Positions 418 to 31,505 of a stretch of 32,000 bases of DNA are shown here, in pieces (the first letter of the stretch is position 1; the number at the start of each line of letters is the position of its first letter). The position numbers and the translations under genes are program-made. Below the pieces are notes generated by a model, which was not told the origin of the DNA, searched no databases, and saw nothing but the letters and a program-made list of their open reading frames with translations. The stretch comes from Coprobacillaceae bacterium (GTDB lineage: Bacteria > Bacillota_I > Bacilli_A > Erysipelotrichales > Coprobacillaceae). The DNA is taken from positions 1,200,001 through 1,232,000 of the forward strand of contig OY776328.1 of NCBI GenBank assembly GCA_963675515.1, given 5' to 3'.

Positions 418-1860
418 ATGGCAAAGAAAAGTTATCCTAAAAAAACCAAAGCAGAAAAATATGACGAATGGCAACAGGGCATAGTTGATTACTTCCTGGA
501 AGATTTACAAAGGGTCAAAGACGAGCTGGAACAAGGAGTAGAAAACCCACGTTTGGCCTGGGAAAAAGAATGGGTCAACCTAATCCAAAAATCTATGGCC
601 AGTGGCAAAGACTATGCCGGTAAAAATCAGCTGATCTTGTCATTGCAGACTGCTAGAAAGAGATATACAGACAGTCGGTGGATAACCTACAATCAGATCA
701 TCAAGCACAATCAGGAATGTAGCGAAAACGAAAAGTGGAACGTGCCTTTGGAATTTCTCAAAAAGGATAACGGCCACATGACCACCGTAACGTTTGTAGA
801 TATCAAATATACCTATGACAAAGACAAGCGATACTATACTGAAAAGCAGATGAATGAGATGATAAAAAACAGCAACGGTTTGATATCGAAAAACGACTTT
901 GACAAGAAAATCAATCTCGGCTATAACAACGTCTATAACGTAAGTCTGGTTGAAGGTATCGAACCAGAGATACCGCTGGTGGTAGACTTTGATGATTACG
1001 TCATTGACAAGATTGTCGATAACTACCTTAGAAACAGTGGGGTTGAAGTCATCAATGCCCAACAAAATAGGGCCTACTATGCCCCGGCAGAAGACAAGAT
1101 TTGTCTGCCACCTCAAGGTGCTTTTAATGACAAACAGGGATATTATTCAACCTTGCTGCATGAAGTCGGCCATTCGATCGGTCACAAGGACAGAATGAAC
1201 CGGGAAGGAGTTTCCGTTACCGGATTCACTGATAAGAAAACCTATGCAAAAGAGGAGCTAGTAGCGGAGTTTACCAGTGTCTTGTTGAATACTAAATTGA
1301 ATATCCATACTGATGACAGCAACGAGAGCAAATACAATAACAATCTAGCCTACATTGAAAACTGGATTGAAATATTGAAAGACGATCCAAGCGTGCTGAT
1401 GGATAGTTTCGATCAGGCGGTTAAGGGTTATGATTATTTTGTGGAAAAAAGCAATCTTGAACTTTACAAAGAATATTTCGTGACGGACAAGGAAGATACC
1501 ATGTCAATCGTTAAGAAAAACATACTTGAATATCTCAATGAGACATTTGAAGATACATATGACAATACCTGCTTCAACAACATGGAAGATGTCGGTTTGC
1601 TTGTGACTACAGTTTTTGATAGTGAAGACAACGAGTATCAGTTTGAGGCAGTTGTGGACTTGAAAAATTTCAAATTTACCAAGCTGATTGATGGTGAAAT
1701 CTTCTACCAAAAAACATATGACAATATCGAACAACTTAATGAGGCTGAATTGATGGGATTGAATGAATCAGACTTGATGTATTTTGACGAAGATAAAAAA
1801 GAGATCAAGCAATTTTTTGAAAAACTGAATGGTAACGACCGGGAATTTGCACAAATCTAA
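418..1860 (+). CDS. ArdC-like antirestriction protein (N-terminal ssDNA-binding domain + HExxH zincin domain) with a long C-terminal extension
   Basis: The N-terminal block AGKNQLILSLQTARKRYTDSRWITYNQI resembles the ArdC N-domain (Y.G.N...L....W.T..Q). The metalloprotease motif LLHEVGHSIGHKDRMNR is like ArdC HExxHxxGH. The last ~150 aa carry no motif I recognise. Confidence 0.75.
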   Translation: MAKKSYPKKTKAEKYDEWQQGIVDYFLEDLQRVKDELEQGVENPRLAWEKEWVNLIQKSMASGKDYAGKNQLILSLQTARKRYTDSRWITYNQIIKHNQECSENEKWNVPLEFLKKDNGHMTTVTFVDIKYTYDKDKRYYTEKQMNEMIKNSNGLISKNDFDKKINLGYNNVYNVSLVEGIEPEIPLVVDFDDYVIDKIVDNYLRNSGVEVINAQQNRAYYAPAEDKICLPPQGAFNDKQGYYSTLLHEVGHSIGHKDRMNREGVSVTGFTDKKTYAKEELVAEFTSVLLNTKLNIHTDDSNESKYNNNLAYIENWIEILKDDPSVLMDSFDQAVKGYDYFVEKSNLELYKEYFVTDKEDTMSIVKKNILEYLNETFEDTYDNTCFNNMEDVGLLVTTVFDSEDNEYQFEAVVDLKNFKFTKLIDGEIFYQKTYDNIEQLNEAELMGLNESDLMYFDEDKKEIKQFFEKLNGNDREFAQI

Positions 1861-1871
1861 CAATGAGCAAA

Positions 1872-1889
1872 GGTGGCAATTTTGCCACC
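1872..1889. repeat. 18-bp perfect palindrome GGTGGCAATTTTGCCACC, copy 1
   Basis: 8-bp arms GGTGGCAA/TTGCCACC with a TT centre. It lies 12 nt after the ArdC-like stop and 11 nt before the AGGAGG RBS of the next gene. Confidence 0.9.
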
Positions 1890-1911
1890 TTTATCAATCA
1901 AGGAGGAAAAT

Positions 1912-2136
1912 ATGGTAATGAGATTTGGTTATGAAATTGAGAGGAAAATATTGAATCACCAAATGTTCATTTTAAATCGAGTATATGAAGATCGGACAAT
2001 TGAGTTATTGGAAGATAATTATCCATATTTGAATCGTAAAGAGAAACACAAACTAACAGATAAAAAAAGAGGATTAAAAATCGTATGCCTATTGGTGGAT
2101 AAATATGATATCATTGAGGAGTGGAGGTATTGTTAA
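1912..2136 (+). CDS. small hypothetical protein (74 aa) translationally coupled to the Fic gene
   Basis: ATG 1912 sits 5 nt after AGGAGG (1901-1906). The track's GTG 1873 start lies inside the palindrome and is rejected. Stop TAA 2134-2136 overlaps the Fic ATG (TAATG). Confidence 0.6.
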   Translation: MVMRFGYEIERKILNHQMFILNRVYEDRTIELLEDNYPYLNRKEKHKLTDKKRGLKIVCLLVDKYDIIEEWRYC

Positions 2137-2975
2137 TGACATCAGGAACATATGATAAAGTTGAACCAACAACGAACAAAGAACAACGTAAAAAATACTG
2201 GGATAATGCATTAGGACTTCAAAAAGTCGATAATCTATCACCTTCTGACTATATGTTATCGTTAGTCAATGAACATATAGAAGGTAAAATCACTTATGAT
2301 GAAATTGGTGATCAGCTTAAATCCTATTATGAAAAAAATGATAATATTTATGAGGAAGAGGCGGATATCGTTTCGTTACGGATTGCGAAGATTCTTGAAG
2401 ATGGTGCTTTTAGGTTCGATTACCGTACCTACTTAAATTATCATAAAATTTTGTTTCAAGGATTAGATATTGGCATTCCAAGTAAATATATTGGAAATGT
2501 GAGAGATTATAACATTTCTAAAAAAGAAGATATACTTAACGGTGATACGGTTATGTATGGTTATGCCGACAATATATTGGAAACACTTAAATACGATATT
2601 GAAAATGAGAAAAATGTTAAGTATTCAAAATTGAATGACGATGAAAGAGTGAGTCAGATTGCAAGATTCACATCATTGTTATGGCAAAATCACGTTTTTG
2701 GAGAAGGAAACACCAGGACGACAGCAGTATTTGTAGAAAAATATTTAATCAGCAAAGGATTGAACGTTGATAATGAGTTGTTTAAAGATAATTCATTATA
2801 CTTTAGAAATGCTCTCGTTAGAGCAAATTATTCGAACTTAAATTTAGATGTTGATGAGACGGATGAGTTTTTGATAAAATTCTTTGAGAATCTCATTCTA
2901 GGCAAAAACAATGTCCTGGATAATGAGGAGATGTATATAACACCAAGGATGAAATCTATGGAAAAAACCAGGTAG
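2136..2975 (+). CDS. Fic/Fido-domain protein with VbhA-like N-terminal segment and non-canonical active-site motif
   Basis: The Fic-like motif HVFGEGNTRTTA compares with canonical HxFx(D/E)GNGRxxR. The N-terminal NALGLQKVDNLSPSDY...IEGKITYDEI resembles the VbhA antitoxin fold sequence. A TGGAGG RBS precedes ATG 2136. Confidence 0.75.
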   Translation: MTSGTYDKVEPTTNKEQRKKYWDNALGLQKVDNLSPSDYMLSLVNEHIEGKITYDEIGDQLKSYYEKNDNIYEEEADIVSLRIAKILEDGAFRFDYRTYLNYHKILFQGLDIGIPSKYIGNVRDYNISKKEDILNGDTVMYGYADNILETLKYDIENEKNVKYSKLNDDERVSQIARFTSLLWQNHVFGEGNTRTTAVFVEKYLISKGLNVDNELFKDNSLYFRNALVRANYSNLNLDVDETDEFLIKFFENLILGKNNVLDNEEMYITPRMKSMEKTR

Positions 2976-9681: not shown

Positions 9682-9710
9682 TTTACAATGAATCATGTAT
9701 GTGTTATTAT
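9682..9710 (+). promoter_or_regulatory. putative sigma-A promoter of the adhesin gene
   Basis: TTTACA (9682-9687), 17-nt spacer, TATTAT (9705-9710). It sits ~50 nt upstream of the ATG 9763 RBS. Confidence 0.45.
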
Positions 9711-9762
9711 TTGTGCGCACTATTGGTTTGATAGACAAATGATAATAAAAGGGAGAATTTTT

Positions 9763-12700
9763 ATGCATAAGTTTAAAAAAAGACTCAAGTATATTTTCAC
9801 GTTTTTCTTGATTTCCGTGTTGGCGTTCAGCACGGTCAACTCAAGTTTATTTGTTGATGCCGAAACTGGTACTGACAAAACAGATGTATTGGAACCTGAA
9901 ATTATGCTACTTCAGGATAATGTTGAATTATCTGAAAGCGATGTGATTGATTCTACAAAAGATCTTGTAGTAAAAATTGATTTCAGTATACCGGTAATTG
10001 GTGATGAACCGTCCCCAACAAATCCGGTATTACAAGGTGATTACGCGTTTTTTGATTTGGGAAGTGATTTCAGCTTGCTAAATGAAGGCCTGCTAGAATT
10101 GACATACGGTGGCGTAAAGGTTGGTGAAGTAAATTTAGTAAATAATACTTCAACTAATCATGTTGAGGCTCAAGTTAATTTTAATGGTGATGTATCTGTC
10201 TATGACGGAACATATAATTCGGTTATAGCAGGTTTTAGCGCTACATTGCGCTATGATGGAAATGAACAGGGACCATCTGATGAAAACTACGATGTCACTA
10301 TTATAAACAAGACTTTTTCTGTAAATGTACCAGCGGCAGAAAAAACTTACAATTTGTCTAAGTCTGGTACTGTGGATCTTGATAATAAAGTTATCAATTG
10401 GACTATTAATGCGAGTGTTGAACAATTAAATCAATATATCTCATTGGAAGGTTATTCAATAGCTGATGATCTTTCGAATGTAGGAGAACTTGTAGAAAAT
10501 TCATTCAAGGTTAATGACGTTTTAGTGGCTAACAGCGTTAATGCTGCTGGGGTATTAAACTATATCTTCAGCAAGGATGACGGTGGACAAGCGGTAATTA
10601 CTTTTCAAACAAAGATAACAGATGAAGAATATTATTCTCAAACCACTCATACAAAAACAAATAGTGTTAATCTTAACGATACAGAGACTACAGTAGTAAA
10701 ATCAGCGACCAGTAGTGTATCATTTAAGCCACAGTGGATTACTAAATCCGGGTCATCTAGTGATGCAAACGTAGCTGTTTATGATCCGATAGGGCGCACA
10801 GTTACTTGGACTATTATTGCAAATGACAATGCAGTCAATCTCCAAAATGTAGTAATTAAGGATGCCTTAAGCACTGGACTTACTTTAAATACCGCAACTT
10901 GGTCAAAATGGGACAGCAGTTCATCTTCATGGATTAATACAACTGCAATCACACCTAATAGCAATGCAGAGTATGCATTAGGCAATATTGATACTAAAAT
11001 TATGTTAAGAATAGTTGCGAATGTTCCAGATCCGACTGGTTTAGGATTTGTAACAGGAGCAACAAATTACACAAATACGGCAACCATTTATTGGACCGGT
11101 AATGATTCAGGTATCACTTCTAATTCGGCAAGTGTAAATGTTGGATATAACGCGATCTCTAAAAGTGGGGTGGCTGATACAACTAACGGAACAGTAACTT
11201 GGACGGTCAATGTTAATACCAAGGGACAGGAAGTTCCGGATTTGAAAGTATATGACTTGCTGATTTTCGGTAGTCAAAATATTAATATGTCACAAGCAAC
11301 TGGCTTGCCTGCAGGAGTCAATTATAGTGACTTGACTCAAAGGACAAATCAAAGATATATTGAAGGAAGTCTTACTAGCAGTAGCGTAAACGTAATTGTG
11401 CACCCAATTTACATCAATGGAACACAAGTTGGAGAGCTCTTGGAATTTACTGGTTTATCAGTAACTGAGTCTAATTCTTACACCTTTAAAACACAGATTA
11501 CAAATCCGGATATTTATGCCGGAAATCGTTCTATAAATGTTTATAATACGGCATCACTATTTAGTGGCAATGAAAAATTGAATGCGGCAACAGGTAGGGT
11601 GACTTATACGAGTAGAATCCTTTCGAAAAGCTTAATCAATTTCAATTACCAAGATAATCTGTCTCAGGGGTTGTCTCATGTGACGACCGATGCTACTAAG
11701 GGGTTTAACTATTTGGATAAATCCATCGTTTATTATCTGGATGTTAATCGAAATGCAATGGATTTGACAAATATGCTTGATAGTAGTGGTACGTCTCTAG
11801 GCAATATCTCGGTAAGTGATATTTTGCCAGAAGGATGGACGTTCATTCCAGTGGTTGATGGGCAAATGTATCAACTCTACGAAGTGGATTCAAGCAATAA
11901 CTATACTTTAGTTAACGATTTATCATTTGTAACAAGTGATTTCACTAACCAACTAGGCCAAGCCACTTTTGATTTCTCGCAGCTGGACAAGCACTATGTG
12001 ATATTGGTTAAAGCTACAGCGGACGAAGATACTCTCAAAGAATATTTTGAAGGAACTGAAACAACAACCATTACAAATAATCTTACGTTAACAGCTACAA
12101 ACCACGTGTTCTCTCCTACGGTTACTGTTTCGCAAAATGTTCAAATTGTTAGTGACGTTTTGAGCAAGGATTATAATTTGCAGCAGGCTGGGGAGTTGGA
12201 GTGGATTGTAGATTATAAAACTTATAATCTTGACTTAAAAGGAATCAAAATTGAGGACACTTTACCACAAGGAATTGAATTGAAAAAGGATAGCAATGGG
12301 TCTTTGGTTATAGATGACAATATTGCTGCATACAAATTGATATTGAATGCTGATGGATCATATTCTCTTGGAGATCAAATTGTTTTGGTTGAAGGCGAGA
12401 ATGTATTGTATAACAGCACTGATCGAACTTTGACGTTTATGATTGAAGATTCAACCTGTTCTTATCGTTTTACTTATAAAACTGATATAACTGGAGATGC
12501 CGGAACAATATCAAATAGTGTCAAGCTCTATAGTGATAGTGAGCTAGAAGTCGATACACAAAAGGCATACTCGATAACTCAGCAAGATGAATATGCAAGT
12601 TTCCAAAAAAGCGGTTGGGTTGAAGTTACCAAAGTGAATCAAGATAATTCACCTCTAGCAGGAGTGGAATTCACCCTGTACACTACTGATGGAACAATTC

Positions 12701-14715
12701 TTCGCCAAGGATCAACTGACTCAAATGGTAAAATACGATTCAAGGTTTTACCAACTGGAGATTATACTCTCAAGGAAACATCAACAATTTCCGGTTATAG
12801 TGTCGAAGATATTGCTCACACCGTAAGTGTTGTAAAAGATGGTGATGCGACGGTTGCCTATATCGATGGTAAAACTGGTGCAAATTCGAATTTGTTGACG
12901 GTAAAAAATTATAGTGTTGACAATTACGGTTCACTTACACTTACAAAATATGTCACTGGCGATGGTGTAAACAGTGATCAAGACTTTGAATTTACAATTA
13001 AGTTAGACAATCAAAATGAATATGATTATTATTTGAATGATGTATACTCAGGAACATTGAGTTCTGGCGATAATGTTTCTTTAAAGGCTGGAGATGTTCT
13101 TAGCATTCCAGGGATCGAGCAGGGGACATCTTACGAAGTTACAGAGGCTGATTACAATGGGATCGGGTTAATGCACGAAAGTGAGAATGCAACAGGAACT
13201 ATTGTTGCCGGGCAAGTTGCTAATGTTGTTTATACAAATTCAAAAATTCCAACCGGGACACTCACCATTTCTAAAAATGTAACCGGAGTTCAAGGAGATC
13301 TTGAAAAAACATTTGATTTTACCATTAACTTTAAAGATTGTAACCGCACATTCGCATATACTGGTGATGGTGTAGCAGACGGTACAGTGACCAATGGATC
13401 ACAATTTTCTTTAGCCTCTGGTCAAAGCATTACAATAACAGATTTACCGGAAAATCTTGAGTATGAAGTCATTGAAAATGATTATACTAGTGATTTATAT
13501 ACAACAACAAGTAACAATGCTATAGGAGTAATAGTAGCTGATGAAAATATCGATGTTGTGTATACAAATTCAAGAATTCCAACCGGAACTCTCACAATTT
13601 CAAAAGATGTAACTGGAAACGGTGGAGACCTTGAAAAAACATTTGATTTCACTTTATACCTAAAGGATTGCACTGATACATTTGAATATATTGGTGAAGG
13701 TGTTGAAGATGGCACAATCAGTGACGGATCTCAATTTTCACTAGCTTCAGGTCAAAGTATCACAATATTGAATATACCTGAAAATCTTGAGTATGAGGTT
13801 GTGGAAAAAGATTATACTGATGATTTGTATAATACTACCAGTGAAAACGCGACCGGAAAAATCGTTGTAAATGAAAACATTGATGTAGCATACACAAATT
13901 CTAAGATCCAGGTTGGAACGCTGACAATATCAAAAGAAGTAATTGGTATTGGTGCTAATCTTGAAAAGCCGTTCGATTTCACTATTTATTTTAAAGATTG
14001 CACCCGTACATTTAAGTATAATGGGGATGGTATTGAAGATGGTATAATTAGAAATGGATCAGAATTTTCATTGGCGGCTGGACAAAGTATTACAATTTTA
14101 AATATCCCCGAAGACACGGAATATGAAGTTGTTGAGAAAGACTATACTGATGATTTGTATAAGTCATCAAGTGTAAATGCATCAGGTCTGATTGAAGCTG
14201 ATAATAACATAAATGTTGTCTATACAAACACAAAGATTCAAGTCGGTACATTAACAATTTCAAAAAAGGTAACTGGAAATCAAGGTGATTTGGAAAAGTT
14301 GTTTGATTTCACAATATACTTTGAAGACTGCAATCGTACATTTGAATTTACTGGTGATGGCGTTGAAGAAGGTACAATCAGTGACGGTTCTCACTTTTCG
14401 CTAGCATCAGGTCAAAGTATAACAATATTAGGAATACCAGAAGGTATTAAGTACGAAGTTGTGGAGAATGATTATTCTGGAGATGGATATACGACAACAA
14501 GTCTCAATTCATTTGGTGAGATAATTGGATTACAAAGCATTATCGTCGAATTTACCAATGATAATAATGTAGATGTTCAAGATGACTCTGCGAATGATCA
14601 ACAGGATACGGCATTATTGGATACAGGTGATAACAATAACAGTTTAGGCCTTAACATTTTATTATTGGTTAGCTCTATCTCAATTTTGTTTATATCTTTA
14701 AAAAAATACATTTAA
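9763..14715 (+). CDS. large cell-wall-anchored surface adhesin with Cna-B/SpaA-type and repeated pilin-isopeptide-type domains
   Basis: ATG 9763 follows AAAGGGAG. Signal peptide is KKRLKYIFTFFLISVLAFSTVNSSLFVDA. A SpaA/Cna-B-like domain reads GWVEVTKVNQDNSPLAGVEFTLY...GDYTLKETSTISGY. Five ~110-aa repeats run from G(T/S)LT(I/L)(S/T)K to Y(T)N. The C-terminal sorting-like signal is LLDTG + hydrophobic stretch + KKYI. Confidence 0.85.
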   Translation: MHKFKKRLKYIFTFFLISVLAFSTVNSSLFVDAETGTDKTDVLEPEIMLLQDNVELSESDVIDSTKDLVVKIDFSIPVIGDEPSPTNPVLQGDYAFFDLGSDFSLLNEGLLELTYGGVKVGEVNLVNNTSTNHVEAQVNFNGDVSVYDGTYNSVIAGFSATLRYDGNEQGPSDENYDVTIINKTFSVNVPAAEKTYNLSKSGTVDLDNKVINWTINASVEQLNQYISLEGYSIADDLSNVGELVENSFKVNDVLVANSVNAAGVLNYIFSKDDGGQAVITFQTKITDEEYYSQTTHTKTNSVNLNDTETTVVKSATSSVSFKPQWITKSGSSSDANVAVYDPIGRTVTWTIIANDNAVNLQNVVIKDALSTGLTLNTATWSKWDSSSSSWINTTAITPNSNAEYALGNIDTKIMLRIVANVPDPTGLGFVTGATNYTNTATIYWTGNDSGITSNSASVNVGYNAISKSGVADTTNGTVTWTVNVNTKGQEVPDLKVYDLLIFGSQNINMSQATGLPAGVNYSDLTQRTNQRYIEGSLTSSSVNVIVHPIYINGTQVGELLEFTGLSVTESNSYTFKTQITNPDIYAGNRSINVYNTASLFSGNEKLNAATGRVTYTSRILSKSLINFNYQDNLSQGLSHVTTDATKGFNYLDKSIVYYLDVNRNAMDLTNMLDSSGTSLGNISVSDILPEGWTFIPVVDGQMYQLYEVDSSNNYTLVNDLSFVTSDFTNQLGQATFDFSQLDKHYVILVKATADEDTLKEYFEGTETTTITNNLTLTATNHVFSPTVTVSQNVQIVSDVLSKDYNLQQAGELEWIVDYKTYNLDLKGIKIEDTLPQGIELKKDSNGSLVIDDNIAAYKLILNADGSYSLGDQIVLVEGENVLYNSTDRTLTFMIEDSTCSYRFTYKTDITGDAGTISNSVKLYSDSELEVDTQKAYSITQQDEYASFQKSGWVEVTKVNQDNSPLAGVEFTLYTTDGTILRQGSTDSNGKIRFKVLPTGDYTLKETSTISGYSVEDIAHTVSVVKDGDATVAYIDGKTGANSNLLTVKNYSVDNYGSLTLTKYVTGDGVNSDQDFEFTIKLDNQNEYDYYLNDVYSGTLSSGDNVSLKAGDVLSIPGIEQGTSYEVTEADYNGIGLMHESENATGTIVAGQVANVVYTNSKIPTGTLTISKNVTGVQGDLEKTFDFTINFKDCNRTFAYTGDGVADGTVTNGSQFSLASGQSITITDLPENLEYEVIENDYTSDLYTTTSNNAIGVIVADENIDVVYTNSRIPTGTLTISKDVTGNGGDLEKTFDFTLYLKDCTDTFEYIGEGVEDGTISDGSQFSLASGQSITILNIPENLEYEVVEKDYTDDLYNTTSENATGKIVVNENIDVAYTNSKIQVGTLTISKEVIGIGANLEKPFDFTIYFKDCTRTFKYNGDGIEDGIIRNGSEFSLAAGQSITILNIPEDTEYEVVEKDYTDDLYKSSSVNASGLIEADNNINVVYTNTKIQVGTLTISKKVTGNQGDLEKLFDFTIYFEDCNRTFEFTGDGVEEGTISDGSHFSLASGQSITILGIPEGIKYEVVENDYSGDGYTTTSLNSFGEIIGLQSIIVEFTNDNNVDVQDDSANDQQDTALLDTGDNNNSLGLNILLLVSSISILFISLKKYI
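12928..14574 (+). repeat. five in-frame tandem coding repeats (327, then 4 x 330 bp)
   Basis: Units start at 12928, 13255, 13585, 13915 and 14245. Each begins GG(T/G/A) (T/A)C(A/N) CT(C/T) AC... encoding G(S/T)LT(L/I)(T/S)K, and each ends ...(Y/F)TN. Confidence 0.9.
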
Positions 14716-23487: not shown

Positions 23488-23698
23488 GTATGAAAATTGC
23501 TACACTTATCGTACAATCGCTGTATATTGTTCATAAAATTGTTTAAGATGGCATAATGTTGATAATGTAGTATTATATATAACCGGGACATAATAATTGG
23601 ATGTAAGTTATGCTTACTGGATATGGCATAACCAAATTCACAAAAAAATGAATTCAAAATCTTTCTATTGTACTATTGCCTCAATGGTAAAGGGATAG

Positions 23699-23729
23699 TC
23701 TAAGTACTGAAAGTCTTTGAGTACTTAGA
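23699..23729. repeat. 31-bp near-perfect palindrome downstream of the large serine recombinase
   Basis: TCTAAGTACTGAAAG-t-CTTTGAGTACTTAGA, with 15-bp arms and 1 mismatch, in a ~700-bp AT-rich non-coding stretch. Confidence 0.8.
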
Positions 23730-24160
23730 TTAAAAAATTTTGCAAATTGTTCTACCTTTTTGAACAAATACTGTGGAATAAAATCAATTTGTCTTGATAA
23801 TATCGATAGGTGTGTAAAATTCAGGAGAAATTTCATTTTTCAGAAATATTTCCTGAATTTTACTATCTATGTAAATTTTCTCTCAAAGATATTGAGCGCT
23901 TGGTTTGTATTGATTGAACAATATTAAAGAACTTAATTCGACATCAGACACATGTTGAGCTAAATCCAACGATTTTCAATTTGTATTTTGGTTTGAAATC
24001 GAAGATTACAGCTGCAATTCAATATTTCTAATTATCAAATATTTTAACTACATGTATTTGGTGGTCAATTAAGTTTAAGAATTACATGTTGTTCAAACGG
24101 AATAAAACGCATGGTTGGAGTTACAAAAATACACATTTTATAAAAATATGGTAATTACAA

Positions 24161-24189
24161 TTGAAAATATTCCTCAAAAGGAATATAAT
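24161..24189 (+). promoter_or_regulatory. near-consensus promoter of the R-M operon with embedded palindromic operator
   Basis: TTGAAA (24161-24166), 17 nt, TATAAT (24184-24189). The spacer and -10 contain the perfect palindrome ATATTCCT-caaa-AGGAATAT (24167-24186). Confidence 0.6.
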
Positions 24190-24224
24190 TAACTAGTGTG
24201 TTACTGTCGATATGGAGGGGAATT

Positions 24225-24413
24225 ATGGAATTTTTGACTACATCAGAAATCGCCGATAAATGGAGTGTATCTCGTCGACGAGTCACGACTTTGTGCCGTG
24301 ATGGTCGCATCGAAGGTGCGATTTTAATAGGTAACATGTGGCTGGTTCCGGAGAATACTAAAAAACCGGAAGATCCTAGACGTATCCGAAAGATTGGGCC
24401 GATAAAAGATTAA
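24225..24413 (+). CDS. small helix-turn-helix DNA-binding protein (excisionase/MerR-like HTH), possible R-M controller
   Basis: ATG 24225 follows TGGAGGGG. The sequence [39 protein letters not shown] is typical of the HTH_17-like fold. It ends 22 nt upstream of hsdM. Confidence 0.75.
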
Positions 24414-24435
24414 AAGAAAATGGAGGATTTGCATA

Positions 24436-25950
24436 ATGGCAATAGGTACTACGAATGTGGGTTTTGAGGAGCAATTGTGGCAGGCTGCCGATAAGTTGCG
24501 ATCAAGTATGGATGCTGCTGAATACAAGCATGTCGTTTTAGGGTTAATATTCCTTAAATACGTATCGGACTCGTTCAAAGAAAAATATGAACAACTTAAA
24601 GCTGAAGGATATGGTGACGAGGAAGATCGCGACGAATATATTGCCGATAATATTTTCTGGGTCCCGAAGGAAGCAAGATGGGAATACATAAAGGCTCATG
24701 CAACAAGTGCATTAATTGGTGATGTGATTGATAAAGGTATGGAATCAATAGAAAAAGAGAATAGTTCGTTGAAGGGCGTTTTAACCAAGAATTACTCTCG
24801 TCAAGAATTGGATAAGACTAGGCTTGGTGAGCTAGTAACCTTGTTTACCAATGTCGATATGGGTACATCTCTCGCCCAAGAAAGAGATGTATTGGGTAGA
24901 GTATATGAATATTTCCTTAGCAAGTTTGCATCGGCAGAGGGTAAATTGGGTGGCGAATTCTACACTCCGTCGTGTATTGTCCGTACATTGGTAGATATGA
25001 TAGAACCTTTTGAGGGACAAATTTATGACCCGGCTTGTGGTTCAGGTGGAATGTTTTGTCAATCTGCTCGTTTTGTAAAAGAGCATCAAGGTAATATTAG
25101 AGATATCTCAATTTTTGGCCAGGAGAGTAATCCGACTACCTGGAAGTTGGCGAAAATGAACCTGGCACTTAGAGGGTTAGAAGCAAACCTTGGAAAACAT
25201 AATGCGGATACATTCCATGATGATCAACATAAAACTTTGAAAGCAAATTATATCTTAGCCAACCCGCCTTTCAATATCTCGGATTGGGGTGGTGAACGAT
25301 TACAGCATGATATCAGATGGAGGTATGGGATTCCGCCTGTTGGTAATGCCAACTACGCATGGTTACAACACATGCTCCATCATCTAAATCCTGTTGGCGG
25401 CGTTGCCGGAACAGTATTGGCCAATGGTTCATTAAGTTCTAATACATCAAATGAAGGTGAAATCAGAAAGAATATGATCATTGGTGATGTGGTAGAGTGC
25501 ATCGTTTCAATGCCAAGTAACCTTTTCTATTCCGTAACTATTCCGGTCTCTCTTTGGATAATGAGGAAAGGGAAGACAGATGCGGCAAAAGGAAAAGTCC
25601 TTTTCATTGATGCTCGTAACCTTGGGTTAATGGTTGACCGTAAGGTCAGAGAGTTATCGGAAGAAGATATTCAGAAGATAGCTTCTACATATCAAAACTG
25701 GCGCCATGGTAAAGATTACGAAGATATCCAAGGATTCTGTAAGAGTGCGACGTTAGAAGAAGTAGCGGAGCAGGATTATATTCTAACTCCTGGCCGATAT
25801 GTTGGGATTGAAGAACAAGAAGATGACGGTGAACCATTCGAAGAAAAGATGACAAGACTATCTTCGGAACTATATGACTTGTTTGAAGAGTCGCATAAAC
25901 TGGAAGCTGAAATTTGTAAAAAACTGGCGGCTATTGGATATGGTAAATAA
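24436..25950 (+). CDS. hsdM: Type I restriction-modification system, DNA methyltransferase subunit M
   Basis: N-terminal HsdM_N-like sequence [33 protein letters not shown]. The AdoMet motif is DPACGSGGM and the catalytic motif is NPPF ([11 protein letters not shown]). Confidence 0.95.
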
Positions 25951-26000
25951 GATAAATTGTGATTTGTATGACTATAAAAAACATTTAGGAGGTTTTAAAA

Positions 26001-26777
26001 ATGGCAAAATACTCCCCGCAGACTAATTACTTTGAAACATCACAAAAATTATCCAAAGCATATACAATATCTTATTTGATTATCTTTATACTTTCAATTA
26101 TTGCAACAATTTTTGAACTTAGTGACATAAGTGAATATATTGGGATTATAGCGATAATATTTTTATTTGTATTAGAAGCTATATCTCAAGACTTCAAGTT
26201 GCGAGCAGAAAGGGTTCGCAGAAAAGACTTTATTGATAATTCATTCGGAACCAGTTTTGTTCATGATTCGTCGCAGGAATATTATGACAATGATGAGTTG
26301 GAAGTAGGTATGAAAAAGGCAATGATAAACTTGTTCGAGAATTCATTTTTTTCGTTTAATGTTTCAAAAGAAATGTTACGAAAAAGTATTGCTATAAATT
26401 TGTTATTTATGCTAGGTATCATATTCATGGCTATTTATGGGTTTAGTAGATATCAGATTGCAATTCCTATATTACAGTTATTTCTATCAAGATATTTTTT
26501 GTTGAAAATACTTAAAACATATAACTTTATGAATAGGGTCGAAGATAGTTTCAATTCATTGAAACAGATTACGGCAAATACAGAAAATAATAGAATACTT
26601 GATAAGAATGAAATCAAGTTTCTGACTGTTTTAGTAGATTATGAAGTGTTGATTGCTGAATCAAATATTAGCCTTGATTCAAAAGTTTTTGAACGGTTGA
26701 ATGATAAATTAACTGAGGAATGGGAGCAGATTAAGGATAAGTATCTAAAAGGGGGAAATAAAGATGAGTGTAAATAG
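26001..26777 (+). CDS. 4-TM membrane protein (2+2 helices), candidate S-4TM/SLATT-like effector
   Basis: Strong AGGAGG RBS. Hydrophobic helices lie at about aa 21-38, 45-61, 129-147 and 151-171, separated by a ~65-aa polar linker. There is an ~85-aa helical charged tail and no enzymatic motif. The stop overlaps the next gene by 14 nt. Confidence 0.55.
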   Translation: MAKYSPQTNYFETSQKLSKAYTISYLIIFILSIIATIFELSDISEYIGIIAIIFLFVLEAISQDFKLRAERVRRKDFIDNSFGTSFVHDSSQEYYDNDELEVGMKKAMINLFENSFFSFNVSKEMLRKSIAINLLFMLGIIFMAIYGFSRYQIAIPILQLFLSRYFLLKILKTYNFMNRVEDSFNSLKQITANTENNRILDKNEIKFLTVLVDYEVLIAESNISLDSKVFERLNDKLTEEWEQIKDKYLKGGNKDECK

Positions 26778-27558
26778 CTATGCAGAATCTCTTTCAAGTG
26801 ATTTGGTTTTAAGTCACAGTGAAAAAGAAAATATCAAAAGATCAATCACTACTTTAAGAACACGGCTAAATTTTTATTTTGGAGATATTAAAGAGATGTT
26901 TGAGTTCGGGTCATATACTAGAGGAACGATTTTACCAAGAAAGGCCGATTCAAATTCAGATATCGACTTTATGGTTGTTTTTGACAATAGTGATGACTAC
27001 AAACCCCAAACATATCTAAATAGGTTAAAGAAATTCGTTGAAAAATATTATTCTACTTCAGAGATTTTTCAATCATCACCGACTATTGTGTTGAATTTGA
27101 ACCACATTAAATTTGAGTTGGTTCCGGCGTATTCACCAATCTCTCTATGGAGTGCAACTTATTACATACCAGCACCAAAACAAGACTACAGAGAATGGAT
27201 GGAAACATCACCAAATAATTTTAACCAGTCCCTTATAGACAAAAATAATCAAGAAAACAGCAAGATAAAACCAGTGATACGACTTGCCAAATATTGGAAT
27301 GCTTCACAAGGTAGGGTTTATTCATCATATGCTTTGGAAGAGTATATTGTAAAATTAAGTTATGGTTATTTTTCAACTTCTGTGTTTGATTATTTTTATG
27401 ATTTTGCTTTAAGCCTTTCTACAGGACACCTAAATGTAACAGCAAAGACGAAGGTAGATCGCTTACAGAGTATCGTTAGAGAAATTAAACAACTGAAAGA
27501 TAATGGGAGTGAGTATTCTGCAGAGCAAAAGTTGAAAAAGATACTACCGGAATTATAG
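26764..27558 (+). CDS. minimal Pol-beta-fold nucleotidyltransferase, SMODS/CD-NTase-like
   Basis: The pattern FGSYTRGT (G49-S50) ... SDIDFMVVF (D66,D68) ... KFELVPA (E118) fits the GS...DxD...(D/E) catalytic pattern. The C-lobe-like segment VIRLAKYWNASQG..SSYALEEYIV is as in OAS/CD-NTase-type enzymes. AAGGGGG RBS upstream. Confidence 0.6.
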   Translation: MSVNSYAESLSSDLVLSHSEKENIKRSITTLRTRLNFYFGDIKEMFEFGSYTRGTILPRKADSNSDIDFMVVFDNSDDYKPQTYLNRLKKFVEKYYSTSEIFQSSPTIVLNLNHIKFELVPAYSPISLWSATYYIPAPKQDYREWMETSPNNFNQSLIDKNNQENSKIKPVIRLAKYWNASQGRVYSSYALEEYIVKLSYGYFSTSVFDYFYDFALSLSTGHLNVTAKTKVDRLQSIVREIKQLKDNGSEYSAEQKLKKILPEL

Positions 27559-27870
27559 GGTAGTATGCAAGTAATATGGTTGTGTTGTAAAAAGTTTATA
27601 AGAAGAAAAACGGAAAAATAGATGTTTTTTAATTTATCATTTATATATAGTCAAAATATAAATGTGAATAATAATTATATTTTGAGATTCGGTTTGATAA
27701 ATAGGACTGATTACAGTACGCTAGATTAGCTGAATCCTATTATAAAGACAGGGTTTTGGACAATTCTATCGAAGAATAAAAAAATGTTCAAATATCTTAC
27801 GAGTTGCAAAAATTAGGGATGTTAGCTCCAAAAATTGTGATTTAGCGTATCAAAAAGAAGGTGGAAATAG

Positions 27871-29055
27871 ATGGCGAAACTAGGTGATTATATAAAGATA
27901 AAGCATGGATTTGCTTTTAAGGGTAATTATATTTCGACAGAAGATAATAATGTAGTTTTAGTGACTCCGGGAAATTTTGCTATAGGCGGAGGATTTAAAG
28001 AACAAAAATGCAAGTATTTTAGTGGCGATTATCCAGACGATTATGTTCTTAATGAAGATGATTTGATTGTAACAATGACAGATTTAAGCAAGGCAGTTGA
28101 TACTCTAGGCTATAGTGCTCTAGTTCCTGGTTCAAATTCTCGAACATATCTTCATAACCAACGTATCGGATTAGTGCAGTTATTGAATAAGGACATTGAT
28201 AAGCATTATTTATATTGGTTTATGAGAACTCCAGTATATCAAAAAACTATTATTGCAACTTCAACAGGTTCAACAGTTCATCATACATCTCCAAAACGTA
28301 TTTATGAGGTTGAAATTCAAGTTCCAGAAATTGATGTTCAAAAGAAGGTAGCTAAATTTTTAGATGATTTAGAAAGAAAAATCATAGTAAATGAAAAGAT
28401 AAATAGGAATTTATATGACCTAACAAAAGCCGTCTATAATGAACGATTTGGAAATCTTCAAAAAACAAAATTATTAGAGGATTACCCTGTTAGAATATAT
28501 AGTGGTGGTACTCCAAGTACTTCATTGAGTGAATATTGGAATGGAGATATACCGTGGCTTTCATCAGGTGAAACAGCCGAGTCATTTGTCACAACAACAT
28601 ATAAAAATATTACCCAGTTGGGCGTAGACAATTCATCAACTAGATGGGCTGAAAAATACGATGTAGTAACTGCTTCTGCTGGACAAGGGCATACTCGAGG
28701 TCAAACATCAATGCTACTCCTTGGTGCGTATATAAATCAGTCGGTTATAGTGACTCATGCAGAAAAGCAATACATGCCATTTATTTATTTTAACATTAGT
28801 GGCAGATATGAAGAACTTAGAGTTTTATCTGATGGAACTAGTACACGAGGGAGTCTTACAACAAAGATTATGGCAAAACTAAGCATGCCAGACGTTTCTG
28901 AATCTGAAATATCTGAGTACGCTGAATTTGTATGGCCAATTATAGATAAAATTGAGATAAATCTGTTAGAAATAGAACGATTAACATTGCTTAGGGATAA
29001 TCTATTACCAAAACTAATGTCTGGTGAATTGAACGTTTCAGGTTTAGACATTTAG
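27871..29055 (+). CDS. hsdS: Type I restriction-modification system, specificity subunit S
   Basis: Two target-recognition halves are each followed by a conserved helical spacer (KKVAKFLDDLERKIIVNEKINRNLYDL and LLEIERLTLLRDNLLPKLMSGEL). The N-terminus LGDYIKIKHGFAFKG is typical. GAAGGTGG RBS upstream. Confidence 0.9.
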   Translation: MAKLGDYIKIKHGFAFKGNYISTEDNNVVLVTPGNFAIGGGFKEQKCKYFSGDYPDDYVLNEDDLIVTMTDLSKAVDTLGYSALVPGSNSRTYLHNQRIGLVQLLNKDIDKHYLYWFMRTPVYQKTIIATSTGSTVHHTSPKRIYEVEIQVPEIDVQKKVAKFLDDLERKIIVNEKINRNLYDLTKAVYNERFGNLQKTKLLEDYPVRIYSGGTPSTSLSEYWNGDIPWLSSGETAESFVTTTYKNITQLGVDNSSTRWAEKYDVVTASAGQGHTRGQTSMLLLGAYINQSVIVTHAEKQYMPFIYFNISGRYEELRVLSDGTSTRGSLTTKIMAKLSMPDVSESEISEYAEFVWPIIDKIEINLLEIERLTLLRDNLLPKLMSGELNVSGLDI

Positions 29056-29195
29056 TACGATAGATATTAATTTTTTTATGACGTTAAAGGATAGATATCT
29101 TTGTTAAAAGTAGCATTTGATAGGTTTTGAGCTATCAATGGATAAGGATAATTGTAGATATAAGACAACGATATAAAAAGGCGGAGGTATCTTAA

Positions 29196-30317
29196 ATGAT
29201 GCATGATGATTTATACTTTGCTACATATGAAGATTTTGTAGAAGAATACGGGAAGTATCATATGCATGATTGTAATGTATGCGGTGCTCATAGAGAACAA
29301 ACAGAAGCTTATCTCAATGTTTATTTAGATGACAAACATCTGGAATTTCAGGAGATATTAGTTTTGCAGTGTCAGCATTGTGGTAAATGGGTATTACCAA
29401 TGCATAGTAAAGAAATGATCGATGGTGCATTTAAAACAGCCGTTAAAGAGAATCAATCACACGGATTATTTTATCCAAAAGGATATAAGAAAGTGTTTGA
29501 TTATTGTGTGGCTATGGGACTAAAATACGACCATAGAGATTATTTTAACGTCCCAGGGTTAAGTTATGATGAGGAACATTCTGTTGAAGGGTTCTTGACG
29601 CCTGTATATTTTACCAAAAGTGGATTATATTACTTTCTTTATGATCCAGAATATAATCTGCATTTATTTTCAGAAACATATGGTAGCTTGAGTTTCCGTG
29701 ATGAATGGAATATTCCGTTTGGAATAAATAGGAATGGAAACGTCATCTTCTGGTTGGGCGATCTAAGTTACATTGATGAACGATCGTTGCAGATACTCAA
29801 ACCACATAATATTGAATCCGATCATCAATTAATTGTTTCGGAATTTTATGCTGCTCAATTGTGCTGTATTTGGAGCGAACCAAATAAAGAGATGAGTATC
29901 TACTTTCAAAGAAGTGCCCTCTATAAACGAATCGAAGATAAACATAAGATTAAACTGTTTCATTTAGAGGATGAAGTGAAAGAGCAGATGAATAAGTTCC
30001 AAAAACCAATAGTAATTACTGAAGCTAACATAGAACCAAGTATAAATCTATTACATAAGGTATTAGTTGAGGGTGTCGACATCCCAGAGCTGAGGAAGTT
30101 ATATGAAATATCGGTTGAGAGTACTTCAAAGGGATATACGGACTGGAAGTCAATTAAGTTGTATCAGGGGATATTAGAGCCATATGTTTCTGAAGATGAG
30201 TTGCGAAAGATCATCTCCCCAATGTTTCTACTAAATGATTTTCGTCAGTATTTCGATCATCTTTTGCCGAATGATAAAAGACAAAGTGGTACTATGTCAA
30301 TATTTAGGACAAATTAA
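29196..30317 (+). CDS. uncharacterised protein with N-terminal CxxC...CxxC zinc-ribbon; last codons supplied by the IS end
   Basis: GGAGG RBS. The zinc-ribbon is CNVCGAH...(28 aa)...CQHCGKW (YgiT/MqsA-like). The remaining ~300 aa have no motif I recognise. The final codons AGG ACA AAT TAA lie within the inferred IS3 terminal repeat. Confidence 0.7.
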   Translation: MMHDDLYFATYEDFVEEYGKYHMHDCNVCGAHREQTEAYLNVYLDDKHLEFQEILVLQCQHCGKWVLPMHSKEMIDGAFKTAVKENQSHGLFYPKGYKKVFDYCVAMGLKYDHRDYFNVPGLSYDEEHSVEGFLTPVYFTKSGLYYFLYDPEYNLHLFSETYGSLSFRDEWNIPFGINRNGNVIFWLGDLSYIDERSLQILKPHNIESDHQLIVSEFYAAQLCCIWSEPNKEMSIYFQRSALYKRIEDKHKIKLFHLEDEVKEQMNKFQKPIVITEANIEPSINLLHKVLVEGVDIPELRKLYEISVESTSKGYTDWKSIKLYQGILEPYVSEDELRKIISPMFLLNDFRQYFDHLLPNDKRQSGTMSIFRTN

Positions 30318-30327
30318 ATGTAAGAAT

Positions 30328-31149
30328 TTAACTTGCCTTGCTTAGGTTAATGTAATTCTTTTCAAATTGATTTGGTGATAAATATCCACAGTGTGAATGT
30401 ATTCGCACCGTGTTATAGAACCCTTCAATATATTCAAATATTATGCGATAAGCATGGTGATAATCTTGTATTATAAAACGATTTGTCCATTCTCGCTTGA
30501 TTAGTGCGTGAAAAGATTCGATACAAGCGTTATCCCAAGGGTTACCTTTGTCGGAGTAGCTGGTAACCATATCTTCAGTCATTTCCTTGAATAGTTTCGA
30601 AGTAAATTGCACACCTCGGTCAGAATGTATGACAATAGGGTCATCTGTGTTACGTCTCTGTTTGGCTTCCGCCAGGCATTTAAGCACTGCCTCGGAACTT
30701 AAGGTGTCGCTCAATGTCCAGGCAATTATCCGCCTAGAATAAAGATCCATTATGCTGGTCAGGTATACAAATCCGTCATCCTGAGTCCACACATAAGTAA
30801 TATCGGTACACCAGGCACCATTAGGTTTTTCGGGGTTAAAATCACGTTTAAGGATATTTCTAAGTTTATTTGAAAAGTCACAATCTTTGGTGGTCACTGT
30901 ATAAGGTCGGATATAGTGGGCTCTCATGTTGTTTTCTCTCATAATATTGCCCACATATTTTTCACTGATTTTATGGCCTGATTTTCGAAGCAATTCAGTT
31001 ATTTTAGGGGCGCCGTAGATCTGCTTGGAATCGTCATGTATTTCCTTGATTTCCTTTGCTAGAATGGCTTTTCTGACCTTTTGCTTTGATGGTGTTCTTT
31101 TCAAATAATTGTAATATCCTGATTTGCTTACTCCTAGTTTGTTTAGCAC
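30328..31149 (-). CDS. IS3-family transposase OrfB (DDE integrase domain), expressed as OrfAB fusion
   Basis: DDE signatures are WCTDITY, HSDRGVQFTS and NACIESFH. The orfB frame stays open upstream to the slippery site at 31239-31245. Confidence 0.9.
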   Translation of the reverse strand: MLNKLGVSKSGYYNYLKRTPSKQKVRKAILAKEIKEIHDDSKQIYGAPKITELLRKSGHKISEKYVGNIMRENNMRAHYIRPYTVTTKDCDFSNKLRNILKRDFNPEKPNGAWCTDITYVWTQDDGFVYLTSIMDLYSRRIIAWTLSDTLSSEAVLKCLAEAKQRRNTDDPIVIHSDRGVQFTSKLFKEMTEDMVTSYSDKGNPWDNACIESFHALIKREWTNRFIIQDYHHAYRIIFEYIEGFYNTVRIHSHCGYLSPNQFEKNYINLSKAS

Positions 31150-31214
31150 ACTGGAAACAGAAATTTTGGCTGTTTTGCCTTGTTCTTCTACTGCGGCGTA
31201 GATTTCCTGTTTTG

Positions 31215-31505
31215 TTATTTCCCCAGTATGCCAATAGCCTTTTTTAGGACATCTAGCGCATCCTTGGTATCCTTGAGTTCTTTCTTCAGTCTCGCAATTT
31301 CTTTTGCTTCATCGCTGGAAAAATTCCCGCTACCTCTTGAAGCAACAACCCCATTATTTGCACCAGCGTCTTTGAGCCATTTGTGAATCGTGGCATCCGA
31401 AATTCCAAAACGCTTGGAAACAGCTATTTTGGATTCTTCAGGGTGATCAGCAACATACTGAACAACGCCTTGTTTGAATTCATCTGTATAAATTGGTCTA
31501 CTCAT
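31215..31505 (-). CDS. IS3-family transposase OrfA (HTH)
   Basis: The HTH-containing sequence KIAVSKRFGISDATIHKWLK is followed by leucine-zipper-like KEIARLKKELKDTKDALDVLKKA. A GGAG RBS lies 9 nt upstream of the ATG. Confidence 0.9.
   Translation of the reverse strand: MSRPIYTDEFKQGVVQYVADHPEESKIAVSKRFGISDATIHKWLKDAGANNGVVASRGSGNFSSDEAKEIARLKKELKDTKDALDVLKKAIGILGK
31239..31245 (-). other. programmed -1 ribosomal frameshift heptamer A AAA AAG
   Basis: On the minus strand orfA reads CTA AAA AAG. This puts the canonical X XXY YYZ heptamer in the zero frame. A -1 shift enters the orfB frame. Confidence 0.8.

Follow-up and report, generated by a model that had tools for sequence, protein, structure and literature searches.

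The stretch analysed here (the window) comprises 32,000 nucleotides of contig OY776328.1 of a Coprobacillaceae bacterium (assembly GCA_963675515.1, positions 1,200,001 to 1,232,000). Located within it is a conjugative element that carries a Type I restriction-modification (R-M) module, and between hsdM and hsdS of this module lie two overlapping genes, gene 1 encoding a protein with four transmembrane (4TM) segments and gene 2 encoding a short nucleotidyltransferase (NTase). We consider it likely that the pair is a self-contained abortive-infection (Abi) cassette of the type I CBASS kind (cyclic oligonucleotide-based antiphage signalling system), present as a 1.9-kb insert in the R-M module of the conjugative element. 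An earlier reading of the letters and open reading frames (ORFs), made without database searches (here denoted the sequence-only reading), had proposed a minimal CBASS-type pair at this place, and profile searches of both proteins bear this out. Comparison loci are denoted by L and a number.

The product of gene 2 matched the Pfam family SMODS (PF18144) with E=1e-40 and 140.1 bits (cut-off 26.5) over model positions 1-164 of 164, and the PADLOC CBASS cyclase model PDLC00769 with 1e-100 and 334 bits over positions 1-260 of 261; the generic family NTP_transf_2 gave 1e-07 only. An alignment of 26 homologues showed that G49, S50, D66 and D68, as well as K176-Y177-W178-N179, are invariant and that E118, which aligns with the third catalytic acidic residue (Asp) of solved CD-NTases (cGAS/DncV-like nucleotidyltransferases), is at least 90% conserved; the GS, DxD, E and KYWN motifs had been picked out in the sequence-only reading, and all of them proved conserved. 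When the profile of these 26 homologues was compared with all PDB sequences, every match at E<=3e-4 was a CD-NTase or cyclic-nucleotide-synthase chain, among them 9sa4, PaCdnD (6p8u, 6p82 and 6p8j) and CdnD/Cdn chains. The AlphaFold2 (AF2) model of gene 2 (pLDDT 90.3, pTM 0.85) gave the same picture, its top 50 Foldseek matches in the PDB being CD-NTases throughout (CdnD, CdnB, CdnC, DncV, CdnE and CdnG), with TM-scores of 0.76-0.79 to PaCdnD 6p8u/6p8j and BfCdnB 7ljo, which are among the smallest CD-NTases. Together the profiles and the predicted structure indicate that gene 2 is a CD-NTase with the full two-lobed fold (NTase core and helical C-lobe) and an intact GS / DxD / E set. Since the profile and structure matches are CD-NTases, identity as an MNT antitoxin or antibiotic NTase is excluded: MntA scored 14.9 bits (E=0.018) where 60 are required, among PDB chains the best MNT-like one had E=0.06, and no such NTase is present in the Foldseek top 50.

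The scores of gene 2 against the two NCBIfam models of CBASS oligonucleotide cyclases, NF041117 (102.6 bits) and NF041116 (45.9 bits), were below the cut-off of 200, which sets its family apart as a short clade that neither equivalog model covers. At least 1929 homologues were found at E<=1e-5; nearly all of the best 120 have a length of 259-278 amino acids (aa), and they come from Firmicutes, Proteobacteria, Bacteroidota, Cyanobacteria and other groups. The closest cyclase among species-representative genomes is 58% identical. The sequence-only reading had taken the shortness of the cyclase for a peculiarity of this locus; it is instead the trait of a whole family of ~260-aa proteins, and PDLC00769 itself has 261 positions.

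Gene 1 aligned through residues 1-248 with positions 1-255 of the 258 positions of the PADLOC 4TM effector model PDLC00726 (7e-44) and over the full length with a second 4TM effector model, PDLC00719 (3e-36). It also matched phrog_31574, a PHROG family whose function is not known (7e-51), and, marginally, the PADLOC 2TM model PDLC00696 (E=0.0099). Hydropathy placed four hydrophobic segments at about residues 21-40, 45-63, 130-148 and 153-171, and the AF2 model (pLDDT 78) shows four long helices reaching past the membrane and two C-terminal helices, in agreement with the 2+2 arrangement of transmembrane (TM) helices proposed earlier. Membership of the S_4TM (PF18159) or SLATT families, which had been proposed as well, was rejected: the Pfam search of gene 1 gave no match at E<=0.1, PF18159 included, and 42 homologues are also without a Pfam domain on record. 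The charge distribution suggests, by the positive-inside rule, an N-in/C-in topology. The 18 invariant residues are not concentrated in the TM helices; nine of them (R73, D79, N80, S91, Y94, G103, K106, N110 and N114) fall in the cytoplasmic TM2-TM3 loop. Since no binding domain was recognised and a fold search of the model against the PDB returned nothing below E=0.5, it is from conservation only that we infer that the TM2-TM3 loop (residues ~70-118), together with the C-terminal helices, is the part of gene 1 that reads the signal.

Linkage of the two genes was surveyed in 79 species-level genomic loci carrying the cyclase. A 4TM gene is found directly downstream of the cyclase in 37 of them and directly upstream, the order of the window, in five, which are also the nearest relatives; a SLATT-type 2TM effector precedes the cyclase in 22. 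In all, a 4TM or 2TM effector gene stands no more than 219 bp from the cyclase in 64 of the 79 loci, and in the remaining 15, several of them at contig ends, no partner gene was detected. Matches to PDLC00712 (up to 2e-62) and SLATT_4 (2e-07) were obtained with the 2TM effectors, those of the sister sub-clade. Metagenomic relatives with a cyclase identity of 65-69% retain the effector-first pair, and the 14-nt overlap of effector and cyclase is seen again in L083 and L088. The effector-first order, which had been noted as unusual, is common to the nearest relatives, and the linkage of 4TM protein and NTase is conserved in dozens of genomes. Judging from these gene neighbourhoods, the 4TM effector family is genetically locked to the short-cyclase family in many phyla. 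Profile searches of the neighbouring genes (HTH, hsdM, hsdS, ORF373 and IS3) detected no Cap2/Cap3, HORMA/TRIP13 or OGG/QueC-type genes; with no ancillary CBASS genes beside it, the pair falls under type I (minimal) CBASS. Elsewhere, members of the short-cyclase family have Mrr, OLD/Gabija-like, Abi_2 and other CBASS genes as neighbours in defence islands.

Several homologous pairs have settings of their own. At L083/L084 (4731-10795) two CBASS systems stand side by side after hsdS-hsdR-YgjP. In the first, a 216-aa gene accompanies a DncV-like cyclase and an effector that does belong to Pfam S_4TM; the second, set off from it by genes for PC4 and WYL regulators, is a short effector-first pair akin to that of the window. 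The arrangement recalls Panoptes systems neighbouring CBASS. At L086 (8001-9419), a close relative, the 4TM effector gene is intact and the cyclase is cut to 65 aa by IS66, which is relevant to the question of whether the effector is toxic without its cyclase. A cyclase-first homologous pair is located beside ISS1 on the conjugative plasmid pMRC01 of Lactococcus lactis (L102, NC_001949.1, 21584-23131); its NTase has 261 aa (45% identity), and the partner, a hypothetical protein, has 252 aa. Plasmid pMRC01 is known for phage resistance, and we found no paper that ties its cyclase-effector pair to the abortive-infection phenotype of the plasmid. Effector-first homologues are also present on Clostridioides phage ES-S-0173-01 (CP067352.1, 7266-8009), a 113-kb phage or phage-plasmid record, and an effector-first pair is carried by the C. 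difficile plasmid pCd18_2 (L103, 5234-6813) beside phage lysis and tail genes and an integrase, suggesting that the cassette also moves on phage-like elements.

Comparison with related loci shows where the pair entered the hsd operon. The DNA of the window is homologous to L092 and L093 up to position 25965, 15 nt past the hsdM stop codon, and the homology to these loci resumes only in conserved parts of hsdS. In L093 and L094 the site between hsdM and hsdS is empty, the two genes being separated by gaps of 47 and 32 nt, which agrees with the premise of the sequence-only reading that hsdM and hsdS are normally adjacent. The insert is flanked by a 12-nt direct repeat, AAATTGTGATTT, of which the 32 kb contain two exactly matching copies only, both strands counted; the same 12-mer appeared in 66 of 200,000 shuffles of the 312-nt spacer between gene 2 and hsdS. 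When 25966-27843 are removed in silico, the resulting junction can be aligned to the natural empty site; the similarity past the right repeat to the hsdS lead-in of the empty site is weak, and the left end of the cassette is partly similar too. The G+C content is 0.290 in the 4TM gene, 0.328 in the cyclase gene and 0.272 in the 312-nt spacer, against 0.407 in hsdM, so that the drop noticed earlier from spot counts holds over the insert. Cassette DNA matches that of relatives only from the ribosome-binding site (RBS) to the cyclase stop codon, and in the non-coding tail we detected no ORF, Rfam family or predicted terminator, nor a homologue in ~100 related loci. Because of the empty site, the breakpoints, the flanking 12-nt repeat and the lower G+C, the earlier proposal that the pair is a separately acquired cassette is well supported by these alignments. 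Terminal inverted repeats were not found at the cassette ends, the inverted repeats present being internal and imperfect, and there is thus no sign of a transposon. The cassette could have entered by short-homology recombination, by target-site duplication, or by exchange via the integrase that occupies the slot in the nearest relatives, and the 12-nt repeat would be either a target-site duplication or a recombination scar.

The same position between hsdM and hsdS holds different genes in related loci. The hsdM lineage is widespread and strongly conserved, with orthologues 83-94% identical to that of the window. The slot contains Abi_alpha and a tyrosine integrase in L092 (hsdM 94% identical), an integrase and a 99-aa ORF in L100 (91%), a 249-aa gene whose function is not known in L101 (89%), a pair of MNT and NTase_sub_bind (HEPN-type) genes in L095-L099 (83%), and nothing in L093 and L094 (89%), where a 139-aa gene and hsdR follow hsdS. 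In the more distant L091, a C. estertheticum plasmid with ~67-72% DNA identity, it contains a gene with a PDDEXK nuclease domain; this was the single, distant hsdM match when the whole locus was compared with plasmids by megablast. We rejected the 249-aa gene of L101 as a lone 4TM effector, as it is unrelated to gene 1 and has no PADLOC match. Locus L092 also shares the element backbone of the window, at ~65-72% DNA identity from the coupling protein to the recombinases and 85% over HTH-hsdM. From the gene content of these loci, the hsdM/hsdS position is in this hsdM lineage a variable cargo slot for Abi- and toxin-type genes, occupied in the window by the CBASS pair. Of the earlier claim that a suicide module nested in a Type I R-M operon would be a new architecture, the nesting between hsdM and hsdS is confirmed, and the novelty is not, the slot being variable and embedding of this kind documented (PMC3710099, PMC11411939, PMC12255303, bioRxiv 10.1101/2024.01.29.577857). 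Downstream of hsdS, L092 (14125-15467) carries a ThsB-like TIR gene and a gene for a caspase-like Peptidase_C14, which together may form another defence module, in a slot on that side of hsdS.

The features of the locus are listed in Table 1. The ORF map confirmed the ends of hsdM (TAA stop codon 25948-25950) and hsdS, the 14-nt overlap of the two genes and the 312-nt non-coding spacer (27559-27870) as they had been read from the letters, together with the two RBSs, AGGAGG 8 nt upstream of the ATG of gene 1 and a GGGGGA Shine-Dalgarno sequence for gene 2.

Table 1. Features of the hsd operon and its insert (positions in the window)
Feature	Position	Strand	Evidence or remark
Promoter-like site, TTGAAA-17-TATAAT, 11/12	24161..24189	+	Consensus match only; directly 5' of the HTH gene
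HTH_17 protein, 71 aa	24198..24413	+	Pfam HTH_17 8e-07
hsdM, Type I R-M methyltransferase subunit, intact	24436..25950	+	N6_Mtase 2e-108, HsdM_N 2e-27, PADLOC MTase_I 3e-231
Left 12-nt direct repeat	25954..25965		Final stretch shared with the empty-site relatives
Inserted cassette, 1878 bp, G+C 0.30	25966..27843	+	RBS, 4TM gene, cyclase gene, unique non-coding tail, right repeat
Gene 1, CBASS-type 4TM effector (predicted), 258 aa	26001..26777	+	PADLOC 4TM models, hydropathy, AF2
Gene 2, CD-NTase/SMODS cyclase (predicted), 264 aa	26764..27558	+	Pfam SMODS, PADLOC PDLC00769, Foldseek
AT-rich non-coding 3' tail, 273 nt, G+C 0.27	27559..27831		
Right copy of the 12-nt direct repeat	27832..27843		28 nt before the hsdS start codon
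hsdS specificity subunit, 394 aa, two target-recognition domains, intact	27871..29055	+	Methylase_S 6e-20 (two stretches), PADLOC Specificity_I 1e-73
ORF373, Zn-ribbon-containing protein	29196..30317	+	hsdR position of relatives; N-terminal CxxC...CxxC
IS3-family insertion sequence, orfA HTH_Tnp_1 and orfB rve	30328..31505	-	Pfam rve 2e-22, HTH_21, HTH_Tnp_1; right boundary of the operon

The promoter-like site at 24161-24189, the best of those scanned, is likely the operon promoter. It lies inside the conserved module, since the HTH-hsdM homology to L092 and L093 begins at 24125-24161; in the consensus scan the number of promoter-like sites in the region was not above that of shuffled controls. 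Homologues of the helix-turn-helix (HTH) protein, with 68-85% aa identity, are encoded directly upstream of hsdM in L092, L093, L100 and L101, making it a candidate regulator of the operon. The central and C-terminal conserved regions of hsdS match those of L093. ORF373 gave no Pfam, PADLOC or NCBIfam match; its family comprises 274 cluster representatives, usually of 400-415 aa, and the match to them stops at residue ~364 of the query. As the copy in the window is ~35-40 aa short and its stop codon is only 10 nt from the start of the IS3 element, ORF373 is probably truncated at its 3' end by IS3; it may be a further defence gene. With four HsdR queries, no hsdR was detected in the 32 kb of the window, nor in L092, which is syntenic (19.5 kb); the gene could lie beyond IS3 and the end of the window. 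Elements of this family seem to have the order HTH-hsdM-[cargo]-hsdS and to lack a restriction subunit, in which case the enzyme would be either methylation-only or supplied with HsdR from elsewhere.

The window as a whole is a conjugative element, encoding ArdC, Fic, a VirB4-like ATPase, a CHAP hydrolase, a MobL relaxase, a coupling protein and two serine recombinases, and the R-M module is cargo adjoining the recombinases. At the opposite end of the element (418-2975, plus strand) are an ArdC-like anti-restriction/metallopeptidase gene and a Fic-domain gene, so that one element bears anti-restriction as well as R-M and Abi functions. A 1675-aa surface protein (9688-14715, plus strand), with five DUF7601 repeats and SpaA-like and collagen-binding domains, is a probable mating or adhesion factor.

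All genes of the operon are co-oriented, and the consensus scan detected no terminator-like site in 23500-30400. Within the insert neither a convincing promoter nor a convincing terminator was recognised, and the cassette is therefore probably transcribed together with HTH-hsdM (and hsdS). We propose that transcription from 24161-24189 would proceed through HTH, hsdM, effector and cyclase, and probably hsdS too, and that the 14-nt overlap would probably couple translation of the cyclase to that of the effector. Phage infection would activate the cyclase, resulting in synthesis of a cyclic oligonucleotide that the TM2-TM3 loop and the C-terminal helices of the effector would bind; the effector would then oligomerise and permeabilise the membrane, and the cell would be killed or arrested before phage release. 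In this scheme the module would be a second, suicidal line of defence, transferred and expressed together with an R-M system that forms the first line and targets DNA. A type I CBASS with a 4TM effector protects at least 10,000-fold against phage, its toxicity being dependent on the active site of the cyclase (bioRxiv 10.1101/2023.05.21.541620); activity of a type I CBASS is known from Lactococcus as well (PMC11381338).

Several observations weigh against this proposal. We found no published characterisation of the ~260-aa cyclase clade with respect to nucleotide synthesis, effector activation or phage defence, and the validated 4TM example, EcCdnD12, uses a different and longer CD-NTase than gene 2. 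Gene 1 is without a recognisable nucleotide-binding domain or structural relative in the PDB. The promoter and terminator scans gave consensus matches that are not above background, and an internal promoter could be hidden in the 312-nt tail, or the tail could dampen expression of hsdS. Moreover, the hsd-abutting loci of the family, 11 among the 79, and the hsd genes present within 10 kb of most close relatives could mean functional coupling and not hitch-hiking.

The relation of the short-cyclase family to Type I R-M was read from the same 79 loci. The family lies within or abuts a co-oriented hsd operon in 11 species loci (14%), a share that rises to 36% in the 2TM sub-clade, and no hsdM was detected within 10 kb in 65 loci (about 82%). 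In the effector-first sub-clade, four of nine contexts (five species loci and four metagenomic ones) have hsd genes within 10 kb. A layout [half-hsdS]-hsdM-hsdS-2TM-cyclase-hsdR-YgjP/M48 peptidase is found in eight of these 11, namely L019, L024, L028, L048, L055, L075, L076 and L078, read as far as each contig extends (the contig of L076 starts at the cyclase, its upstream part being unseen); the species are mostly Gammaproteobacteria, plus a Riflebacteria metagenome-assembled genome (MAG) and an actinobacterial MAG (e.g. L055, 4851-14944). Cyclase and hsdM identities co-vary in six of these composite loci and L056 (r=0.81), suggesting one old composite inherited as a unit. Independent associations are those of L056, upstream of a different hsdM family, L004, after hsdS and followed by Abi_2, L074, after hsdS, L088, 29 bp after hsdR-YgjP, and the window, between hsdM and hsdS. 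The cassette thus takes five positions relative to hsd genes: between M and S, after S, between S and R, after YgjP, and upstream of M. A half-size hsdS-like ORF of ~200 aa, with one target-recognition domain, directly precedes hsdM in many hsd operons that contain CBASS (L004, 5439-6047; L055, 4851-5450; equivalents in L019, L024, L075 and L078).

These data bear on a guard of the PrrC type, in which an HsdM2S or R2M2S complex would keep the cyclase or effector inactive and phage proteins such as Ocr, ArdA or Stp-like proteins would release the suicide response. The sequence-only reading had drawn this parallel, and the physical nesting of the pair between hsdM and hsdS, the family's co-oriented hsd neighbours, the old composite with its co-varying cyclase and hsdM, the close relatives placed directly after hsdR-YgjP (L088) or after hsdS (L004), and the PrrC precedent itself (PMC3710099, PMC12707154) all fit it. 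However, most loci of the family are without a nearby hsdM, the five positions give no sign of a fixed protein partnership, unrelated cargo occupies the same M/S slot in sister loci, no hsdR is present in the window or the syntenic L092, and simple co-inheritance predicts the co-variation equally well. We therefore regard such a guard as unlikely: the variety of positions, the 65 loci without nearby hsdM and the interchangeable cargo argue for linkage and co-regulation rather than a protein-level guard, and linkage with co-regulation is the most likely tie between the pair and the R-M system. A broader version, in which the short CD-NTase clade with its 4TM and 2TM partners would form a CBASS lineage adapted to act in concert with Type I R-M, seems to us more improbable still, although the share of hsd-abutting loci, the old composite and the hsd genes around effector-first relatives would fit it. 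Such a clade could, for example, fire when anti-restriction proteins block the complex, or read the nucleotide or DNA state left by failed restriction; if true, it would be a nucleotide-signalling analogue of PrrC.

The signalling could also run in the inverse direction, as in Panoptes, with a nucleotide made constitutively by the cyclase keeping the 4TM effector closed until its depletion by phage Acb1, Acb2 or Tad-like proteins releases the effector. Gene 2 is a bare catalytic core of 264 aa without a sensor or regulatory extension, superposing with TM-scores of 0.76-0.79 on CD-NTases of 290-300 aa; with the effector-first order and translational coupling, no effector would be made without cyclase; constitutive activity in vitro is known for some CD-NTases; the constitutive synthase OptS restrains the TM effector OptE (PMC12657218); and the pair of L083/L084 adjoins a second, canonical CBASS, as Panoptes systems often do. 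Yet both hallmarks of Panoptes, the mCpol synthase and the beta-barrel S-2TMbeta effector, are absent here, and in the sole 4TM type I CBASS tested, toxicity depends on an active cyclase, a case of positive signalling. Under strict inverse logic, moreover, the intact effector gene beside the IS66-truncated cyclase of L086 would be lethal unless the effector is dead or silent. We give the inverse scheme about the same small chance as the guard, and positive signalling by a type I CBASS stays our preferred reading. Less still do we favour selfish addiction or stabilisation cargo of the hsd operon or conjugative element, or functionless passenger DNA, not primarily concerned with phage defence: the location on a conjugative element beside recombinases and IS3, a bona fide toxin-antitoxin-type pair (MNT/HEPN) in the same slot of sister loci, an R-M system that is at best a methylase as no hsdR was found in the window, and the selfish benefit of embedding discussed by Payne et al. 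(bioRxiv 10.1101/2024.01.29.577857) are offset by two ORFs that are full length against the family models with catalytic and invariant residues intact, by classification of the family with CBASS and its presence in defence islands, and by homologues that are also found on a phage.

For annotation, the locus is best described as a probable type I CBASS (short CD-NTase and 4TM effector) carried as hsd-operon cargo on a conjugative element, and not as a new system. Modestly new are the occurrence of a CBASS in an hsdM/hsdS slot and the abutment of the short-cyclase family to hsd operons. The locus offers a clean example of embedded defence, in which occupied and empty sites, breakpoints, a 12-nt repeat and at least five alternative cargos can be compared, and the survey shows the clade to be incorporated into Type I R-M operons with unusual frequency, among them the long-lived hsdM-hsdS-2TM-cyclase-hsdR-peptidase composite. 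With about 1.6 kb, it provides a small experimental system for asking whether an embedded Abi module is merely co-regulated with R-M or senses its failure, and it may show how an effector without a known nucleotide-binding domain reads its signal.

Among known systems, the pair is closest to type I CBASS with a TM effector (EcCdnD12-4TM; PADLOC PDLC00769 and PDLC00726), with which it shares the two-gene composition of CD-NTase and multi-pass membrane effector, the GS/DxD/acidic active site, the lack of Cap2/Cap3/HORMA and the occurrence in defence islands and on mobile elements. It differs in that its cyclase belongs to a ~260-aa clade scoring under the NCBIfam cut-offs, its effector is outside Pfam families, its sub-clade is effector-first with a 14-nt overlap, and the pair is located within an hsd operon.

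With PrrC of EcoprrI (hsdM-hsdS-prrC-hsdR) the module of the window has in common a suicide function inside a co-oriented Type I operon, plausibly as a second line of defence. PrrC itself is an ABC-ATPase/HEPN anticodon nuclease that is almost exclusively hsd-embedded and is physically silenced by the R-M complex, whereas the module of the window would combine nucleotide signalling with a membrane effector, and its family is mostly found away from hsd genes and in variable positions, with no hsdR seen at the locus. Many Abi and HEPN families are, like PrrC, embedded in Type I R-M operons (PMC3710099); TgvAB is embedded in a Type I R-M system of V. cholerae VPI-2 (PMC11411939), and DarTG2 in an RptR-hsdM-hsdS-DarTG-hsdR-M48 island (PMC12255303). 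Genes embedded in Type I R-M, BREX, DISARM and Hma systems are co-oriented in 96.7% of cases, and the cargo recognised by this 'guilt by embedding' includes MNT/HEPN, Abi_alpha, Abi2 and RhuM/Fic; CBASS has no occurrence in the main text of that study (Payne et al. 2024, bioRxiv 10.1101/2024.01.29.577857). The window resembles these embedded modules (DarTG2, TgvAB and others) in carrying co-oriented hsd cargo headed by a small regulator gene. Its slot lies between hsdM and hsdS, in contrast to the hsdS/hsdR slot of the DarTG2 island, and its cargo is a CBASS; the gammaproteobacterial hsdM-hsdS-2TM-cyclase-hsdR-YgjP/M48 operons have the exact layout of the DarTG2 island, with CBASS replacing DarTG.

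Panoptes (OptS mCpol and OptE S-2TMbeta), finally, is like the window pair in combining a minimal nucleotide synthase with a TM effector. Unlike Panoptes, the synthase of the window is of the Pol-beta/SMODS type and not mCpol, and the effector is predicted to be an all-helical 4TM protein and not a beta-barrel sensor; inverse signalling logic has been demonstrated for Panoptes only.

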